From a virus, in the UHGV virus genome UHGV-0306558: 25,890 bases of DNA; one strand, written 5' to 3'. Numbering within the stretch: the stretch's first letter is position 1; each line of letters starts with the position of its first letter. Of the stretch, positions 2,015 through 11,659 are shown piece by piece. Position numbers and translations under genes: made by a program. Below the pieces are notes generated by a model that ran no database searches, had not been told where the DNA came from, and saw only the letters and a program-made list of their open reading frames with translations.

Positions 2015-2089
2015 GTCCTCTTAGTTAAATGGATATAACGAGCCCCTCCTAAGGGCTAATTGCAGGTTCGATTCCTGCAGGGGACACCA
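2015..2089 (+). tRNA. argW: tRNA-Arg (anticodon CCU); prophage integration target
   Basis: 75-nt sequence gtcctcttagttaaatggatataacgagcccctcctaagggctaattgcaggttcgattcctgcaggggacacca with T-arm GGTTCGATTCC, CCT in the anticodon loop and encoded CCA end. Followed directly by a phage integrase. Confidence 0.93.
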
Positions 2090-2250
2090 TTTATCAGTTC
2101 GCTCCCATCCGTACCAGTCCGCAAAATCCCCTGAATATCAAGCTTTCCGTAGATTTACAGTTCGTAATGGTTCGCGTCAGATCGTTGACAGCCGCACTCC
2201 ATGACGGGTAAAAAGTGGATAAAATAATTTTACCCACCGGATTTTTACCC

Positions 2251-3405
2251 ATGCTCACCGTTAAGCAGATTGAAGCAGCAAAGCCGAAAGAAAAACCATA
2301 CCGCCTTCTCGATGGTAATGGCCTGTACCTTTATGTCCCTGTATCAGGGAAAAAGGTATGGCAACTTCGCTACAAGATTGACGGTAAGGAAAAAATACTG
2401 ACCGTAGGAAAATATCCACTAATGACTTTGCAGGAGGCAAGAGATAAAGCATGGACTGCGAGGAAAGACATCTCGGTTGGCATCGATCCGGTAAAAGCGA
2501 AAAAGGCTTCGTCTAACAACAATTCCTTTAGCGCCATTTACAAGGAATGGCACGAGCACAAGAAGCAAGTCTGGTCTGTAGGATATGCGACTGAACTTGC
2601 CAAAATGTTTGACGACGACATTTTACCTATCATTGGCGGCCTTGAAATTCAGGATATTGAGCCGATGCAACTGCTGGAAGTAATCCGCAGGTTTGAAGAT
2701 CGCGGTGCAATGGAGCGAGCCAACAAAGCCCGCAGAAGATGCGGCGAGGTTTTCCGTTATGCTATTGTCACTGGTAGGGCTAAATATAACCCGGCACCTG
2801 ACCTTGCTGACGCCATGAAGGGATACCGCAAGAAGAACTTCCCGTTTCTTCCAGCAGACCAGATCCCTGCATTCAACAAAGCACTGGCAACATTTTCAGG
2901 AAGTATCGTATCGCTCATTGCGACCAAAGTTTTACGCTACACAGCCCTAAGAACGAAAGAGCTTCGTTCCATGCAATGGAAGAACGTCGATTTTGAAAAC
3001 AGGATTATCACTATCGACGCCAGTGTGATGAAGGGACGCAAAATTCATGTGGTTCCTATGTCAGACCAGGTGGTTGAACTTCTCACTACGCTAAGCTCAA
3101 TCACCAAACCAGTATCAGAGTTTGTTTTTGCCGGGCGCAACGATAAGAAGAAGCCAATCTGCGAGAACGCGGTATTGCTTGTGATCAAACAAATCGGCTA
3201 TGAGGGTCTGGAAAGCGGTCACGGATTCAGGCATGAATTCAGCACGATTATGAACGAGCACGAATGGCCCGCTGATGCTATTGAAGTGCAACTGGCACAT
3301 GCCAACGGCGGATCTGTGCGCGGGATTTACAACCATGCTCAGTATCTGGATAAGCGCAGAGAAATGATGCAGTGGTGGGCTGATTTCATTGACGGAAAAG
3401 CATGA
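2251..3405 (+). CDS. int: Tyrosine integrase, P4 family (IntS-like)
   Basis: ORF adjacent to the tRNA and transcribed away from it. Sequence from MLTVKQIEAAKPKEKPYRLLDG closely resembles K-12 CPS-53 IntS as recalled. Track start at 2215 is GTG; the ATG at 2251 is the likely start. Confidence 0.9.
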   Translation: MLTVKQIEAAKPKEKPYRLLDGNGLYLYVPVSGKKVWQLRYKIDGKEKILTVGKYPLMTLQEARDKAWTARKDISVGIDPVKAKKASSNNNSFSAIYKEWHEHKKQVWSVGYATELAKMFDDDILPIIGGLEIQDIEPMQLLEVIRRFEDRGAMERANKARRRCGEVFRYAIVTGRAKYNPAPDLADAMKGYRKKNFPFLPADQIPAFNKALATFSGSIVSLIATKVLRYTALRTKELRSMQWKNVDFENRIITIDASVMKGRKIHVVPMSDQVVELLTTLSSITKPVSEFVFAGRNDKKKPICENAVLLVIKQIGYEGLESGHGFRHEFSTIMNEHEWPADAIEVQLAHANGGSVRGIYNHAQYLDKRREMMQWWADFIDGKA

Positions 3406-3496: not shown

Positions 3497-5428
3497 TTAG
3501 TTTGTTAACACAGACCCACTTATGATTATTGCATTTGACGTACTGGTTATGTTTGGCATCCAAACCACACCGTTAGTATCGATCATCGCAGATCCATAGT
3601 TCGTACCAGCAGTATTCGAAACCTGTGCTGCACCTCCATATAACAGCCCTCCAAATGACGGAAGTGTCGTTTTTGATAGACCATGTTCACATGAAAGATA
3701 GTTTGTTGGCGACACTTTAACCGAAAAAGATACAATCTTATTATTTCTTGTAAATTTTCCTTCAATTAACGCACCTCCTGGAGCTGTCCAACCAGGGATC
3801 CCAGGTATAAAGTCGCGACAACTCAAATCTCCTGTAATTGTTAAATAGTTCTGAATCCAGGAATCAGAACCAGCTATTCCTTTTGTTAGTTTTTCTGAAT
3901 ACACATTAGTTATTTCTGTGTGCCCATTGACGCCTACAGCATTAATATCAGATGTCACATTACCTACCTGCGAATGTGATACTGGGTTTTCTATCAAAAT
4001 ATTACTATTGGCACCGGATGTGCCATCCAACTTAACCAGGGCTCCATCTATGTCTCCAGTAAGATTTCCATTCCCTGCGCCATATGGGGAGGTAAGAACT
4101 ACTTGAGAACACCCTGTAGTTAGATAAAAAACACCTAACTTATTTCCTTCCCCTGCGCAGTTGATAGCAGTAAACCCTTCAACAGAATGCAGTATATAGC
4201 CATACCCAGAAACTTCACTTCCTTCACTTGCACAAGTGTTCATAGAGCAATAGATACAATTTTGGAAATAGAAACAACCACCAATGCCATAACAGTTTTC
4301 AAACAGCAATGAAGTACATGCCGGTTGCACACAGAAAGAAGGGCCACCTCCATGCATCCACACTTTGCAATGAGAGATATTCCCCATGAAAGCACAGTCT
4401 GTGCCATCAGATTCCCCAAAGCGGATACCTTGCCCCCCAGGTCCAGTATCGGAATCCACAGTAATACCAGTTAATCTAAAATCATCTATTTTAGTCAGCC
4501 ATAAAGCGACTGACATCGAACTACCACCGGCACGATGCGATATATGAAAATCTTCTAAAACCAGACCTCTTACTCCCTTAAAAGTAATGGCACGCGAATT
4601 TTGCGGTATAGAATCAAAATTTAAATAGCAAAGGTTTTTAGTTTTGGCATTTGCCATATGATTATAAGAGCCAGTACCTGTTATTTTCAGGCTCGCCTCA
4701 TCATTAAAGTCAATAACAAGTGGTTTTGAAAATTTATATTTACCACTTAAACTAATTTCTTTACCCCGTGCAGCAGCGATGCATTTTGTAAATGCTTCAT
4801 GGCAATCAACGGTGTCAGTAGGATCTGCTCCCCACCATTCGGGTTTGTAGCTCCCTTCTATTACCCTCTTCCATCTCCTACCGGAAGCCCCAACCAAAAT
4901 GATTCCATCATCATCATCGCTCGTAGTGTCTGTATCATCTAAATAAAACCATCCTTCTCCGCCATCAAATGGCTCTAACCTCCCAAGGCAATATATTTTT
5001 TTTGATTTCTCAGAATAAGTTCTTATATCAGAAAAATACGCTCCTCCAACCAGCGTTGAGCCATAAACATCGGCTAGGCGACTTGTGAACTGATCCGGGT
5101 CGTACTTCAGAACATTCGGAAAATAGAACTGCTGCGCACCGTATGCATCATAAACAGCCATAGAATGGCCTTGCACAGTTACGAATTTGGCAATCTGTCC
5201 GTTATATACAGGATACCCGCCAGAGTTAATGATGATTGGCTGTGCAACAGGAACGTGAGAACCATCTTCGTTCTCTACATAAACCTGAATCTGGTTTTCA
5301 GGATTTACCGGATCAGTGTCAATTTTACCGATATAAATTTTGCCATTAGCTACGGCTTTAAAAGAGCGGGCCATAGTGAAGAGTTGCGAAGGCATCGATA
5401 CGATCACATTGGCTGTAATGTCTGTCAT
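3497..5428 (-). CDS. Tailspike protein: P22-type head-binding N-terminal domain joined to a divergent receptor-binding domain
   Basis: N-terminal ~110 aa ([13 protein letters not shown]...[24 protein letters not shown]...[15 protein letters not shown]...NVLKYDPDQ) match the P22 gp9 head-binding domain. The remaining ~530 aa do not resemble P22 gp9 as recalled; they are rich in G/S/T/N as expected for a beta-helix. Confidence 0.88.
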
Positions 5429-5528: not shown

Positions 5529-6407
5529 TCAGTAGTTATGTACTGAAGGAGGTAATTCTTTATTCTTAAGTCTCATCCATGCGGAAAGATTCGTTGGTCC
5601 GTCTGGCTCATTGATATCAACATCTCGTGTGTGATTGATTAAAACGTCTCTCGCCATTCCGATAACATACGAGAACTCATGACCGTAGTCGTAGCATCTG
5701 CCGGAATAGTTCGATTGAATTTGTTTTAATGCCGGATACAGTTCGCGGAATAATGCCTGTGAACGGTTGGCATAATCCCATAACCATACAAGGCTGTTTG
5801 CTTCTTTTGCAGAAAGCTCGTTGGTTTTCTTCTCTTGTTTGCCGATAAATTCACCTTCAAGCACTACCCTGTGGATGTACTCTACGGCCAGCGGGATTTG
5901 TTCAATTGAAAGTTCATCAATGCTGTCAATACCAAAACGCTGATGAACCATATTGTATGCATCGTCATAGCGAAGTCCTTTCTTTCCTACCAGCATGTTT
6001 ACTGCATCTCGTAGCGGCGTTCTTTCCTCAACAGTGGTTTTCTTGCCTTTCACATACTCGCCATGTTTGCGAATTGAAGGTAGAACTTCTGCTGTTACCC
6101 ACTTGCGGAATTTGTGCGGGACCGAACCTTTATTGACAGCATCGCGGCAGCGCAGAACCAATGTATACATACCTGATTCGCTAACAATGCTTAGATTCTG
6201 CTCACCACCAAGGGTGTAACTTAAAGTTACTCCCTTTTCATCGTCATCAAGTGCAGTAAGCGCCTTGCGTGAGTTAGTCAGGGTTAAAGCATCACAAACA
6301 TCTTTTGCTACAAACCACGGCTCACCGCATTTGTTGATGACGCGGATTTCACTGTCGCCGAATTTGAAGATGGTGAAATCGTTTTGTGCCTTTGCTATAC
6401 TTTTCAT
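5529..6407 (-). CDS. ant: Antirepressor Ant (Bro-N/KilA-N-like N-terminal domain)
   Basis: [41 protein letters not shown]... Position downstream of arc as in P22 immI. ATG at 6407 follows AGGAAAT; the longer track ORF to 6473 is probably an N-terminal over-extension. Confidence 0.85.
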
Positions 6408-6475
6408 GTCAATATTTCCTAATCCGATTTGTTGATACCGAAGCCCTGACTGTTCCCGCAGTTGGGGCTTCAACT

Positions 6476-6727: not shown

Positions 6728-6979
6728 ATGGCTAGAGATGATCCGCACTTTAACTTCCGTATGCCTATGGAAGTAAGGGAGAAATTAAAATTCAGGGCGG
6801 AGGCGAATGGGAGATCAATGAACTCCGAGTTGTTACAAATCGTCCAAGATGCTCTATCAAAACCATCGCCTGTGACTGGATATCGCGACGATGCAGAACG
6901 ACTCGCTGATGAGCAGTCAGAGCTTGTTAAGAAGATGGTGTTTGATACGCTGAAGGATTTGTACAAAAAACCCACCTGA
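6728..6979 (+). CDS. mnt: Mnt repressor
   Basis: 83-aa product MARDDPHFNFRMPMEVREKLKFRAEANGRSMNSELLQIVQDALSKPSPVTGYRDDAERLADEQSELVKKMVFDTLKDLYKKPT is near-identical to P22 Mnt as recalled. Divergent from arc; GGAG 8 nt upstream. Confidence 0.95.
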   Translation: MARDDPHFNFRMPMEVREKLKFRAEANGRSMNSELLQIVQDALSKPSPVTGYRDDAERLADEQSELVKKMVFDTLKDLYKKPT

Positions 6980-6997
6980 AGGTGGGTCCTATTTATT
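6965..6997. terminator. Bidirectional terminator between convergent mnt and lipoprotein gene
   Basis: Hairpin CCCACC-TGAA-GGTGGG (6971-6986) flanked by AAAAAA upstream and TCCTATTTATT downstream. Confidence 0.7.
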
Positions 6998-7415
6998 AGT
7001 CTTGCTTTGTTGATGGTATAAGAGATGCGTTTGCCTCTTTTGGCTTCAAGGTATACATTCCACCATTAAATGGATCTACAGCAAGCCAACCAATTAACCC
7101 ACCAAACACAAGGTTCCCACCAATATACCAACCATTAGCATTGGCTTTGATTGGCAGGGTAACTGGTTCATACCCATCCTTCTCCATAGTGATCTGGTAG
7201 TTCTTTTTGCCAAAATAGCTACCATCTGACTTGGCGAGCGTTACACCTTGTGGGGTCCTACCTTGCGCAACAATCACACCTGACTCATCTTTTACCTTAA
7301 AGCTCGCGCCAGAAGGATTGCTGTTCACTTGCACAAGTTGCGTTTCATCACCAACAATAGTTGCGCACCCAGATAACATCATAGCGCCAGCAACGACGCC
7401 AATAATCCTCTTCAT
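6996..7415 (-). CDS. Putative lipoprotein with PEGA-like motif; accessory gene in the P22 sieA slot
   Basis: MKRIIGVVAGAMMLSGC has a signal peptide and lipobox L-S-G-C. Downstream PSGASFKVKDESGVIVAQGRTP resembles a PEGA-type beta motif. Region is AT-rich relative to neighbours. Start at 7415 (ATG) preferred over 7427. Confidence 0.6.
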   Translation of the reverse strand: MKRIIGVVAGAMMLSGCATIVGDETQLVQVNSNPSGASFKVKDESGVIVAQGRTPQGVTLAKSDGSYFGKKNYQITMEKDGYEPVTLPIKANANGWYIGGNLVFGGLIGWLAVDPFNGGMYTLKPKEANASLIPSTKQD

Positions 7416-7532
7416 ATCAATTTCCATATTTAAAAAACCGGAAACATCCTAATGACAAACCATTCAAATGTGAAGTAGGCAAAAGATGTTTACTTTTTTC
7501 ATGGTATCCTGCTCAAAACTAAGGAGGTTGGT

Positions 7533-7721
7533 GTGAAGAAAAAATTTGTAAACGTTGCAAAGTGCGCAATTTTTATATTTTTTATGACCTTTTACGGATT
7601 TAGTGCCGGAGAAGGTTTCGATCGTGATGCCAATGCATTCAGTTTCTTTTGTCTGTCTATAGTGGTCATAATTGTATGGGTGGAATTAAAGCAAACATTG
7701 TTTCATGTGCTAAGGAAATAA
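7533..7721 (+). CDS. Small hydrophobic (two-helix) membrane protein, unknown function
   Basis: GTG start 5 nt after a strong SD (AAGGAGG, 7521-7527). 62 aa with two hydrophobic segments (CAIFIFFMTFYGF and FSFFCLSIVVIIVWV). AT-rich, antisense to the late operon, divergent from the lipoprotein gene. Confidence 0.5.
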   Translation: MKKKFVNVAKCAIFIFFMTFYGFSAGEGFDRDANAFSFFCLSIVVIIVWVELKQTLFHVLRK

Positions 7722-7738
7722 CCATCCATGGCATTTAG

Positions 7739-9580
7739 TCACTGCTGTGTTGCCTCAGTGGCAAGCAGCGGTCTGATGGCATTTGCAGCGTTACTTAATG
7801 CTCTTTCATAGGCTGGCGTTCCTGCTTTGGTGTTTGCCAGACGTAAGAGCGCATTCCTTGCTGCTTTGGACTCATACAAGCGCATCATTGCACCGAAACC
7901 AGCCTCAATCCCCATTGATACGCCAAGAGTCGCAGTTGCGCCAATCGTCCTTATCCTGTTGGCTTGTGATTGCCCCGTCTGAGTTACTACATTTGCGGTG
8001 TCTGACCTTGCTGTTTGCTGTAGAACTTCATGAAGAGCATCAAGCTCTTTCATGTGCTTTCCAGAAAAAATAGTGTTGTAAATTTCACCGCCTGACTGAG
8101 ATTTCAGCTTATTAACTTCAGTGATGAACTTGGCTGGAGAGACACCGGCCTTTTCCGCTATTTTGCTGACGTAAGCTGCACGCATAGCATCTTTCCCTTT
8201 ATCATCCTGTGCGCTCCATATTCGTTTCACGTCAGATGGTTTTCTGCTTAATACAACGGTATTTATAAGTTCAGGGCTGGCTTCACTGCTTGCCTTGTTG
8301 AGTTTGTTAGCAATGTTTTTATTAAGCACCTTATTATAAACGTTTGCATAATCAGAATTTGCTTTAAGGTATTTTGCTGCGTCTGATGCACCGAGGTTTT
8401 TTGCAACTGCGTTACGAAGGTCTTTTGACATTGCATTCTCTACCATATTGGTAGCTGCTTTTGCCTGGTTGGGGAAGACCATAGCATCTCCCTGAACATT
8501 AGATCTAAATGCCGTTCTGTGCTGACGCAAGAGATCAAACGTAACATCCAAATCAGTTGCAGGGTTTGCTAATTCTTCACGTAGGTTACGCAAGGATGTA
8601 AGCAGGCTTTGATTGGCAGACGTCCCAAGTCGTTCCTGTCTTGCGATCGCTGTATTCAGAGCATTCATGGTATTTGTGGTATCAACTGCGGCATTACCCA
8701 TTTTATTGGTGATGTCATTGATAACAGCGCCAGCGGCATCCTTCCGCCCCCTTAACGTGGTGGTCAGAGATTTCACCACATCATCAGGGTTGTACTCACC
8801 AAAACGGTCAAAATAATTGCTTACCAGCTTACTACGCGTTGCATATTGCTCCGCTCTCTTTGAGCCTGTCCCGAGCAAAGCCCCCTCGGAATCCTGAGTA
8901 AGGCCGCGAGTGAAAGCATTTTTCGGCGGGATAACATCAGATGTCATTGGTGTCACGCCCATCGATTCTGATGTGGCAATTTTCTTCGCCACTTCTGGCG
9001 CAATATCACCTTTTATAGCCGTTATTCCACGCCCTATTCCCTTTGCTGCTGCGGAAAGAACACCCTGAGCGGCAAGGTTAACTCCGGCATTTTTAGCTGC
9101 ATTTTGTGCGAAATCGCCTTTCTGATTTGCGGCCTCTGCCAGTGATCCAATAGCCATGCTTCCTGCCGTTCCAACTCCTGGAACTAAATACCCACCAATT
9201 GTTTCACCTGCTTGTGCGTAGGGGTCTGTCGGTCTGTCTACTGGACGATAAACATCATCCAATACTTTTGGCCCACCAAGCCCCTGACTGATTGCATTAA
9301 TCAGACTTGCGCCACCCTGCAATACGTCAAATGGTATGTTTACCAGACCACGACCAGCCTGCTCTGCAATTTGCCCTGCACTTTGACCACCAGTGATCCA
9401 ATCGCCAGCTTGTTGCATCAATGATGGTTCTTCACGTGCTGGTTCATTATTGGCCTGATTAACTGTTTGTTGCTGAACAGCCTGACCAGCAAAATACTCA
9501 TCAATGGCGGTGCCAATATCTTCCGTGCTCGTACCATCAGGGAAGGTAAATGTCTTACCGTTTGCAGTTACTTTCATCAT
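7739..9580 (-). CDS. Ejection (injection) protein, P22 gp16-like
   Basis: [32 protein letters not shown]... recalled as P22 gp16. Start overlaps the stop of the upstream gene (ATGA). Confidence 0.88.
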
Positions 9581-10956
9581 TCCACCGTAAATTGAATGCC
9601 TGATTTTGACGTGTAGCTACCTCCTGCTGATTGCTGAGTAGGCGGCTGTTGCATTGATGATTTCTTCCCTCCATTACCGACATTAACGTTATATTGCTGG
9701 TTGTAATTGTCGGTATATTGCTGAATGTCGCGCATTGATTGTTGCAGTGCTTCAGGGCTTGAGAAATCAACCTGTGGCATACCTTGAAAATACATCTTTG
9801 CTTCTGCAACGGTGTTGATACCGGATGCCCCCATGTCTCTGGCTGCTGCAATGCCCTGATTCTGCATCTTTCCTTGGATTCGCTGTGCAGCGTTGTATAG
9901 TTTCCTCTGATCACCACCAGATGCACGGCTACGAATATCTGCACCAAGAGCAGGAGAACCTGAAGAGCCTGTAATGCCAGTCATGAAGCCAAGATCGTCA
10001 ATTGATGCACCAGAAATTGCATCAAGATCTTTCTTCATTGCGTAATTCTGCGCGCTTGCTGCCGATGTAGCCGGAGCGGCAATAGAGCCAGCAGGGACGC
10101 GAACCATATTCCCCTCGTTGTCGATACCTTCGTAGAACGCATTAGCCCCAGCGCCGTGAAGCTTCCCGCCTACCGTTACAGTTCTGCCATCTGCTAACTG
10201 AACTGTACGCTCATTATTCCCAACCGATCCTTTCATTGATGCTCTCTGCATCGATAAATCCTGACCGCGCATCGTGATATTCTGACCACGTGCTGTTAGC
10301 GCCTCGCCAGCCTGATTGCTGCGGATTGTCTCTGCCAGCCTGCCTCTGTCAATTTCACGACCAGCCATCTTGTCCTGAACAGCAAACGCCTTTTCTGGTC
10401 CAAGCGCACCGAGAGACATAGTAGTCAGCATGTGTGATAGCTGCTCTGGATTCTGGATACCTGTCTGAATCATCCAGTCAGCATTCGCCCCCACGCGATT
10501 TAACCTGTCCTTATTGTCAGTAATGAATTTACTGTAGGCTTCCGGTCCCTGAGAAAGAGCGACGTTAGCCCTCATGGCTAAATCGCCCATATCGTTGCGT
10601 TGCTGCTCATTAAGACCGGAAAACGCCTGTTGTGCCTGCGCAACAAACGCTGGATTTTCCTTGGCAAACTTAAATAGTCCCGATGGATCACCAGAAGCCC
10701 ATGCATCAGCATGAACCTTATTGAACGCATTAATCGCTTTCTGTTGCTGTTCCTGCTTATAAATATCAGCAACTCCAGCCAGACCACGTAACGCGGTCAG
10801 ACCAACGTTATTTGCACCTGAGCGAGCCAGTTCATTGTTTTCGCGGATCAGACCAAGCGTTGCGTTAATGTCGCTTGCCTTTGGCGCATTCTCATTTTGC
10901 GTACCGATGCCAGCCAGAAAACCACCAGAATTAATACCCTGTTGCCACGTAGCCAT
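9577..10956 (-). CDS. Ejection protein, P22 gp20-like
   Basis: 459-aa Gly/Ala/Gln-rich product in the gene-20 position between gp7 and gp16. Confidence 0.85.
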
Positions 10957-10966
10957 TGATTACCCC

Positions 10967-11659
10967 TTAAAACAACGAGCCAAGCAGACCAAGACCGCCG
11001 CCGATCGCAGCCCCCCACGGAGTTGATGAACCAATTAATTTCGCAAGTCCGGCCCCAGCAATAGCACCAGACGCACCTCCGCCAATAGCAGATTGCATTG
11101 CTGATGGTCTGTTGGCATTTGCCGCTGCAAGAGCCGCACTTTGCTGCGAAATCTGACTCATGTTGTTGGCATATGTCTGCCCGGCGTTTGCCTGACCTTG
11201 CAGTGCGCCAAGACCAATATTTGCCAGATTCTGGTAGTTGTTCATCTGACCAGATAGCCATTGCTGACCAAGCGTTGGTGCGATTGTTGCTAACTGATTA
11301 CTGGTTGCTGTGGAACCTAATCCACCCGTTGCTTCCGCTGCCGCCAGACTCTGATAGCGAGCCTGACCAGCAAGATCTTTGTACTGCTGAGAGTTGTAAT
11401 ACTGGTTAAGCGCCTGACCTTGCCCCTCCAGAGACGATAAGTTTTCGAGGCTTCCGACATACTTATCAGCCAGAGGAGTAAACGGCTTCAGGTTGTTCAT
11501 GATGGTGTTGAACTGCTGATTTTGCAGGTCTGCAGCATACTTCTGGGCTTCTGCTGCATACTTTGCGCTTTTATCAGAACTGCCACCTTTCCCGCCTTTT
11601 TCAGGGCAATAAGGTTCCTCGCCGCGCAGTTTTCTGCCCAGCTTAAATGCATATAACAT
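10967..11659 (-). CDS. Ejection protein, P22 gp7-like
   Basis: MLYAFKLGRKLRGEEPYCPEKGGKGGSSDKSAKYAAEAQ... with Gly-rich hydrophobic C-terminus, recalled as P22 gp7. Confidence 0.85.
   Translation of the reverse strand: MLYAFKLGRKLRGEEPYCPEKGGKGGSSDKSAKYAAEAQKYAADLQNQQFNTIMNNLKPFTPLADKYVGSLENLSSLEGQGQALNQYYNSQQYKDLAGQARYQSLAAAEATGGLGSTATSNQLATIAPTLGQQWLSGQMNNYQNLANIGLGALQGQANAGQTYANNMSQISQQSAALAAANANRPSAMQSAIGGGASGAIAGAGLAKLIGSSTPWGAAIGGGLGLLGSLF

Follow-up and report, generated by a model that had tools for sequence, protein, structure and literature searches.

Two small genes in the slot between the repressor gene mnt and the ejection gene 16 of a P22-like prophage, lipoA for a lipoprotein of 139 amino acids (aa) and small62 for a 62-aa membrane protein with two helices, are real accessory genes (morons) that assort independently of each other. 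Both were found in the virus genome UHGV-0306558, a stretch of 25,890 nucleotides (nt) called the window below. As a kind of gene they are ordinary: the region between genes 16 and 9 of P22-like phages is already known as a rapidly changing "ant moron" (Villafane et al., 2008; PMC2629481). An earlier sequence-only reading of the same DNA had taken the two for one functional unit, which is not borne out, as they occur with varied partners and mostly apart. By the leader in front of it, small62 is one allele of the sieA cassette. The best explanation, to which about an even chance is given here, is that the two are separate accessory genes and work as independent envelope factors expressed in the lysogen. 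The new parts of this picture are the cassette, the broad spread of lipoA over different types of phage and a lead in phage BTP1, whereas the flux of the moron region and the epsilon34 protein gp15, which is lipoA in that phage, were known in 2008.

The sieA slot and its occupants

Over 901 bases around lipoA and small62 the window matches, with 100% identity, a P22-like (Lederbergvirus-type) prophage in Escherichia coli YY76-1, JX21CE33 and other strains, and the RefSeq order in the YY76-1-type prophage, tailspike, ant, arc, mnt, the slot, and genes 16, 20 and 7, is the usual one of P22. In P22 itself, sieA and orf59a fill the stretch from gene 16 to mnt in the orientation of small62 and mnt, together with an unannotated hkcC that runs in the direction of gene 16; with sieA sitting between gene 16 and mnt, the comparison confirms that the slot is the sieA region. 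Gene 16, the last gene of the late operon before the slot, encodes a protein whose C-terminal 150 aa are 77% identical to those of P22 gp16, and at the other border the 88 nt at 6900–6987, which cover the 3′-end of mnt and a terminator hairpin, are 96.6% identical to P22 mnt. Between these borders lipoA and small62 diverge from an AT-rich spacer of 117 bp, and small62 runs antisense to the late operon, both as first described (coordinates in Table 1); only 17 nt separate its end from the stop of gene 16. A survey of the slot across P22-like phages and prophages found that its occupants vary: lipoA and small62 are present in some and absent from others with matching flanks, which is a mark of a moron as defined by Juhala and Hendrix (summarized in PMC3594210).

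small62 is an allele of the sieA cassette

small62 matches phrog_21338 (E 5e-45) and has homologues of 77–81% identity in P22-like prophages of Salmonella and Serratia, all of them 62 codons long and all ending 17 nt from the gene 16 stop. They start with GTG or ATG, and the Shine–Dalgarno (SD) sequence is retained in the three genera even behind unrelated upstream DNA. In the window it is AAGGAGG, 5 nt ahead of the GTG, so that the near-consensus SD and the GTG start proposed for this gene both stand. Among the E. coli, Salmonella and Serratia copies the ratio of non-synonymous to synonymous substitution (dN/dS) is 0.16–0.42 (Nei-Gojobori method; Fisher p 0.002–0.05), 40 of the 62 columns are invariant across homologues, two cysteines included, and the frame stays open in just 0.6% of composition-matched shuffles. 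By these measures small62 is a real gene under purifying selection. Its product has the two hydrophobic stretches that had been claimed for it, modelled by AlphaFold2 as helices at residues 3–24 and 29–61. Its ends are basic (MKKK at the N-terminus, LRK at the C-terminus) and the conserved loop GEGFDRD is acidic, so that by the positive-inside rule it would form a hairpin of two helices whose termini both face the cytoplasm.

What ties this gene to sieA is the DNA in front of it. A leader of about 50 nt, delimited by comparing upstream sequences with P22, epsilon34, JEP4 and phiv205-1, is nearly identical to the DNA before P22 sieA and identical to that before epsilon34 gene 14, and small62, epsilon34 gp14 and P22 sieA all begin at the same GTG behind it. 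When IMG/VR contigs were scanned for the 33-nt core of the leader, GGTATCCTGCnCAAAACTAAGGAGGTTGGnGTG (7503–7535), it was found in at least 121 places. Among the matches listed, to which the IMG/VR counts here and below refer, 115 are followed by a complete open reading frame (ORF), and these ORFs belong to at least 10 unrelated families: a secreted 129-aa protein (33 loci), hkcB-like membrane/coiled-coil proteins of two types (32), a 109-aa membrane/coiled-coil protein (13), small62 (11), a 75-aa two-segment protein (6), SieA (5), and smaller groups that make up the rest. Every leader-linked family opens with a signal peptide or a membrane segment except a 140-aa protein. For example, epsilon34 has a gene for a hkcB-like 107-aa protein (gene 14) where the window prophage has small62, and next to it gene 15, its lipoA.

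The leader also holds the sequence TGgTATCCT, which may be an extended −10 promoter element. It is missing where small62 follows another gene in tandem, as in UPF_BP1, Salmonella and Serratia, in keeping with such a role. In P22, 85 bp upstream of sieA are enough for exclusion from a single copy, and SieA is an inner-membrane blocker of DNA injection whose escape mutations fall in gp16 and gp20 and which is without effect on growth (Leavitt et al., PMC10883804). Because small62 sits behind the sieA leader, its expression in the lysogen is plausible.

The likeness to SieA extends to the locus, the strand, the start codon and the nearly identical 50-nt leader, and both are small membrane proteins convergent with gene 16, but it does not extend to the protein: SieA (PF26849) has 164 aa and three predicted membrane segments, whereas small62 has two helices and lacks the motif FxRYPxEAxxFNK. 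Homology of the two was considered and treated as a chance match (BLASTP E 0.27, a weak local match on the conserved motif of SieA; hhalign probability 0.1%; no Pfam hit). A tie of small62 to one type of gene 16 was likewise dropped, as it occurs with P22-type, JEP4-type and the very different Serratia/epsilon34-like gp16; in the C-terminal 150 residues, gp16 of Serratia and of the window are 15% identical.

The gene is easily overlooked. It was found in 89 of 5426 complete E. coli genomes, most copies of which are left unannotated by RefSeq (the Prokaryotic Genome Annotation Pipeline, PGAP), as they are in the records of JEP4, phiv205-1 and UPF_BP1, and the exact protein is present on 761 public contigs, on all of which it is named "hypothetical."

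lipoA is a travelling lipoprotein gene

From its first ATG the ORF of lipoA would cover 6996–7427 on the minus strand and encode 143 aa. The gene itself is taken to start at 7415, not at the ATG at 7427, because the homologues and phrog_6823 (E 8e-85) begin at MKR. So defined, the protein of 139 aa opens with the signal peptide MKRIIGVVAGAMML (also MKRIIGVVAGAMM-LSGC), in which MKR-IIGVVAGAMM-LSGC gives a charged N-region, a hydrophobic core and a lipobox, in agreement with the first description of a lipoprotein with an LSGC lipobox. Cys17 does not vary among the 61 close and 87 distant homologues compared, and an invariant CATIVGD follows at the lipid site. In Enterobacteria an Asp at position +2 is a signal for retention in the inner membrane. 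In lipoA this position is taken by Ala18, invariant among close homologues, with no Asp. The protein is thus predicted to be lipidated and sorted to the outer membrane.

A PEGA-like motif had been noted in the lipoprotein, and this holds for the fold and the family rather than for the window protein itself, which scores 18.1 bits with PEGA (PF08308), under the gathering threshold of 20.8. Among the 87 distant relatives, 28 match PEGA at E ≤ 0.01 (best 5e-9), and the model shows a beta-sandwich at residues 25–93 with a predicted local distance difference test (pLDDT) score above 90, a PEGA-type fold like that of transthyretin or the carboxypeptidase regulatory domain. The sandwich is followed by a strongly conserved, Gly-rich hydrophobic stretch, NGWYIGGNxVFGGLIGWLxVDPFNGGMYTL (NGWYIGGNLVFGGLIGWLAVDPFNGGMYTL in the window), and then by two strands that return to the sandwich. 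One relative is fused to an OmpA-type outer-membrane barrel, the sole informative fusion in Pfam scans of ten long relatives, and this fusion fits a place for lipoA at the periplasmic face of the outer membrane. Many bacterial relatives (P0136, P0205, P0285, P0108, and P0117) carry an additional conserved C-terminal extension, ...IxIVLLQDVPxxLRxxMVKI..., which the phage-borne versions lack.

Between lipoA and a 67%-identical homologue the proportions of non-synonymous and synonymous differences are 0.23 and 0.76 (pN and pS). The exact protein is found on 225 public contigs, always as "hypothetical," and the gene in 124 complete E. coli genomes. Members of the close family, found in Enterobacterales and Pasteurellaceae, number 719, and a profile search retrieved 5536 cluster representatives, mostly bacterial. 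In the phage epsilon34 the same protein, 96–97% identical, is gp15, with the same place, spacer and terminator, and the −10/−35-like sequence in front of lipoA is found there too. When described in 2008, epsilon34 gene 15 was without an assigned function and had only bacterial matches, none in a phage or prophage (PMC2629481). Homologues are now seen at several other classic moron sites in prophages. In HK97-like prophages of E. coli the 67%-identical one is placed between the genes for the tail chaperone and the tape measure, with a terminator of its own (locus L009). Proteus has one ahead of the tape-measure gene, a further one falls between tail genes I and J, that of an Arsenophonus prophage is next to N, and that of Actinobacillus comes after Q. 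By this distribution lipoA is a travelling moron common to several phage types. Some of the HK97-like prophages that bear a homologue also have a Porin_1 gene between tail genes M and L (10261–11424 in both L007 and L009, 10270–11343 in L010), which L008 lacks.

How lipoA came to the sieA slot can be read from the spacer. Full-length hkcC begins MKKVNIGNVPKML... in Salmonella prophages and P22, and the minus strand of the shared leader holds the P22 hkcC start. In the window only the six codons MKKVNI of this gene survive at 7464–7502, after which the sequence diverges and meets a stop after 12 codons. Thus lipoA arrived by replacing hkcC, and the remnant marks the recombination joint of the exchange.

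Among known systems, the position in HK97-like prophages recalls HK97 gp15, a small membrane protein from the first described moron that blocks genome entry and whose gene sits between the tail chaperone and tape-measure genes (PMC3594210), the same genome position as that of the lipoA homologue. The two were compared by position and description only, and gp15 is a single-pass inner-membrane protein of the YebO family, while lipoA is a lipoprotein with a beta-sandwich. A possible working model is offered by Cor of phi80, N15 and HK022 and by T5 Llp, small phage lipoproteins of the outer membrane that exclude by inactivating a receptor; however, the target of Cor and Llp is FhuA, whereas the phages that carry lipoA use varied receptors, and lipoA differs in fold and size. 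An assignment of lipoA to Cor itself (NF047972) was rejected, as the match (NCBIfam E 0.11, 12.5 bits against a cut-off of 31; PHROG Cor E 0.0036) was confined to residues 5–33 or less of the 143-aa ORF used as query, a part made up of the signal peptide and a few residues past the Cys. Besides this match to the signal peptide region, NCBIfam gave only a weak LEPBI_I2678 match, and a search of the literature for PEGA-type lipoproteins of prophages yielded nothing relevant.

The two genes have different partners

In complete E. coli genomes lipoA was found 124 times and small62 89 times, and the two are adjacent in just 9. Nor are they enriched together in IMG/VR: lipoA lies upstream of the leader in 2 of 11 small62 loci, vs 30 among the 106 loci whose upstream sequence was long enough for a classification. 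The partners behind the leader in these 30 loci are the secreted 129-aa protein (15), hkcB-like proteins (11), small62 (2), and others, while upstream of small62 stand hkcC (3 loci), lipoA (2), or something else (6). In all, lipoA has at least five different partners in the sieA slot, namely the secreted 129-aa, hkcB-like, 75-aa and 109-aa membrane/coiled-coil proteins and a lipoprotein in Gally. The isolated phages epsilon34, Gally and 720R6 have lipoA but not small62, JEP4, phiv205-1 and UPF_BP1 have small62 but not lipoA, and the lipoA homologues in long-tailed prophages have no small62 nearby. Elsewhere small62 has as a neighbor a second lipoprotein gene (Salmonella), a Rap1a-like gene (Serratia), a Panacea-domain gene (E. 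coli ETEC1749), or a C2-type repressor gene (JEP4). The genes thus assort independently and do not form a two-part system.

Of these neighbors, the Panacea-domain gene, of toxin-antitoxin type, lies in the gene 16–mnt slot of ETEC1749 (L022, 3369–3818), and the Rap1a-like gene, similar to type VI immunity genes, directly upstream of small62 in the Serratia prophages (L019–L021, about 4643–4999).

A 23-aa ORF at the same position in BTP1

At the same position as small62, antisense to the 3′-end of gene 16, the phage BTP1 produces STnc6030, reported as an antisense RNA expressed in the lysogen from a 786-nt region, which excludes BTP1 at entry and leaves induction unaffected; phages escape by single missense mutations close to the end of gene 16, near the C-terminus of gp16, and ORFs were ruled out only when longer than 60 aa (Owen et al., PMC7067206). 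STnc6030 differs from small62 in that it is reported as non-coding, that tblastn of small62 finds no match in BTP1, and that the BTP1 slot is without immI genes. Gene 16 of BTP1 is followed by the tailspike gene after 155 nt. The antisense strand of this gap carries a hydrophobic ORF of 23 aa, MERDLLNFVFLIFGLVVGKLLFA (NC_042346.1, 14011–14082, minus strand; L155 3512–3583, minus), which lies within the STnc6030 region and has GGAGGG 4 nt before its ATG and a perfect TATAAT upstream. A conserved counterpart of identical length occurs in g341c, in HF4s, a phage of E. coli, and in the record of phage L, which is classified as Lederbergvirus ST64T; neither in these records nor in that of BTP1 is the ORF annotated. 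Synonymous and non-synonymous changes number 7:4, 8:3, 8:6, 6:6, and 6:7, with synonymous changes equal or more numerous in most comparisons. The exclusion activity of BTP1 may belong to this 23-aa micro-protein. The escape genetics of STnc6030 resemble those of SieA, which fits the idea of a slot whose products are small membrane proteins directed against gp16. In a 2025 review STnc6030 is still given as an RNA.

Possible functions

Both genes are established as real and conserved, and either product bears features that direct proteins to the envelope; what we infer for both proteins is expression in the lysogen, a place in the membrane and, perhaps, an anti-phage effect. If the favored explanation of two independent envelope factors is right, small62 would be made in the lysogen, inserted in the inner membrane as the helical hairpin described above, and would there block DNA delivery by superinfecting P22-like phages, doing the work of SieA without homology to it. 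Separately, lipoA would be lipidated and sorted to the outer membrane, its PEGA-type sandwich lying on the periplasmic side, and would act on a general envelope component, a host part common to the entry routes of many phages, with exclusion or another change of the envelope as the result; a general component is preferred over the machinery of one phage because the family is found in short- and long-tailed prophages with different receptors. Several points weigh against this explanation. For small62, the extended −10 was read by eye and was not reported by the consensus scan, and a relationship to SieA is not detectable (hhalign probability 0.1%). For lipoA, the promoter-like site has just 9 of 12 consensus matches, the gene points the same way as the late operon and could be made mainly in lytic growth, and the Gly-rich segment is modelled at low confidence (pLDDT 51–66); some homologues are chromosomal and outside prophages (Enterobacter), and since bacteria have thousands of members of this family, its role may be a housekeeping one that has nothing to do with phages. 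Finally, for the receptor masking, injection block or abortive infection that the earlier reading had put forward as possible functions, PADLOC, Pfam and NCBIfam give nothing informative, neither protein matching any family of PADLOC-DB 2.0 at E ≤ 1, and neither has a characterized homologue.

A bolder proposal, put forward only tentatively, is that the sieA position is a plug-in exclusion locus. One 33-nt leader would drive unrelated small envelope proteins, from the 23-aa peptide with its single helix through small62 to the 164-aa SieA, each blocking the gp16/gp20 conduit with a specificity of its own. small62 would then be a minimal injection blocker, STnc6030 would act via the 23-aa micro-protein, and lipoA would represent a new, widespread family of outer-membrane exclusion lipoproteins in prophages of short- and long-tailed phages.

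For lipoA the main alternative is a lysogenic-conversion factor for host fitness, which like lambda Bor would serve serum or stress resistance or the stability of the envelope instead of acting against phages. This is judged unlikely. In its favor, most members of the large family are bacterial, some of them encoded in the chromosome outside prophages, the phages that carry it differ widely in receptor and host, it has no PADLOC match, and it would join moron lipoproteins with such roles that are already known (Bor, cited in PMC3594210). Against it, lipoA lies beside the sieA slot and its homologue at the HK97 gene 15 position, both of which are sites of characterized exclusion genes, though this evidence is positional only.

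For small62, 62 aa with two hydrophobic helices would also suit a toxin that damages the membrane as type I toxins, GhoT or holins do, and its convergent, antisense position to the late operon would suit abortive infection or a toxin checked by antisense late transcription; a search found no terminator between small62 and gene 16. We consider this quite improbable: Pfam has no match for small62, including GhoT, Hok and holin families, the leader is the same constitutive-looking one as that of the non-toxic SieA (PMC10883804), the exact protein is kept intact on 761 contigs, and the neighbors vary with no conserved antitoxin partner among them. It is less probable still that 7533–7721 acts through an RNA that pairs with the end of gene 16 as its antisense, the ORF being incidental. 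The BTP1 lysogen makes its excluding transcript from the same position (PMC7067206), and with no intrinsic terminator in between a small62 transcript would run antisense into gene 16; but the ORF is under purifying selection, its length and SD are kept in three genera, and a conserved antisense target is unlikely because small62 accompanies gene 16 sequences as different as those of Serratia and the window. Least likely of all is a single two-component system whose outer- and inner-membrane parts need each other, for which adjacency, divergence around one short control region, joint presence in 9 complete E. coli genomes and complementary predicted locations can be cited, but which fails on the 124 and 89 separate counts, on the lack of enrichment in IMG/VR, and on the phages and long-tailed prophages that carry one gene without the other.

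Prophage accessory genes set which phages infect a strain, and in this way bear on the ecology of strains and on phage therapy. Should small62 and the other proteins of the cassette prove to be injection blockers, one short conserved leader would flag a library of natural inhibitors of the P22-type ejection conduit. With these one could probe the passage of gp16 and gp20 through the inner membrane, of which little is understood so far. By lipoA, the envelope factors borrowed by phages would grow by a large uncharacterized lipoprotein family that counts its bacterial members in thousands. Surveys of prophage defence miss small62 and the 23-aa ORF, because RefSeq mostly skips the former and phage records omit the latter.

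Other features of the slot and its flanks

Features of the slot and its surroundings are collected in Table 1. The claim that lipoA ends at a bidirectional terminator is upheld: on the minus strand the site reads GGACCCACCTTCAGGTGGGTTTTTTG, its stem-loop GGACCCACC-TTCA-GGTGGGTTTTTTG folds at −14.2 kcal/mol with T-runs on both strands, a terminator scan picked it up on the plus strand, and the same site is annotated as a Rho-independent terminator in epsilon34. The low local GC content that had been reported is true of the spacer (0.333) and small62 (0.344) but not of lipoA (0.448), which is like the neighboring genes (0.44–0.47).

Table 1. Features in and around the gene 16–mnt slot (positions in the window)
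Feature	Position	Strand	Basis or remark
ant	5529–6473	−	arc next, same strand
sar RNA	6409–6475	+	Rfam, 71.6 bits; arc/ant junction
mnt, repressor gene, left border of the slot	6728–6979	+	Pfam Arc E 3.9e-30, Repressor_Mnt E 7.2e-19
Bidirectional intrinsic terminator hairpin	6970–6987	both	serves mnt (+) and lipoA (−); T-runs on both strands
lipoA, 139-aa lipoprotein gene	6996–7415	−	epsilon34 gp15
Spacer, 117 bp, GC 0.333	7416–7532		AT-rich, separates lipoA and small62
Promoter-like site for lipoA, TTCACA-17-TAGGAT	7446–7474	−	consensus scan, 9/12 matches
hkcC 5′ remnant	7464–7502	−	translation MKKVNIFCLLHI*
sieA-type leader, ~50 nt	7486–7535	+	upstream-sequence comparison with P22, epsilon34, JEP4, phiv205-1
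Possible extended −10, TGgTATCCT	7502–7510	+	read by eye within the leader
SD, AAGGAGG	7521–7527	+	5 nt before the small62 start
GTG start of small62	7533–7535	+	end of the leader
small62, 62-aa two-helix membrane protein gene	7533–7721	+	phrog_21338
Gene 16, ejection/DNA transfer protein, right border of the slot	7739–9580	−	ORF list; RefSeq "DNA transfer protein"

An Rfam scan at the gathering threshold reported only sar and one tRNA, with no match in 6996–7721. With sar present at the arc/ant junction, the immI control region looks intact. The tRNA gene (2015–2086, plus strand) lies between the host gene dacD and the tailspike end of the prophage, probably at or near the junction of prophage and host. 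Beside the tailspike gene RefSeq has only a 121-aa "bactoprenol glucosyl transferase" (about 2486–2851 in the window; L006 15587–15952), which suggests a truncated gtr (O-antigen modification) cluster; the ORF list shows an ORF of 396 aa over the same stretch (2215–3405, plus strand).

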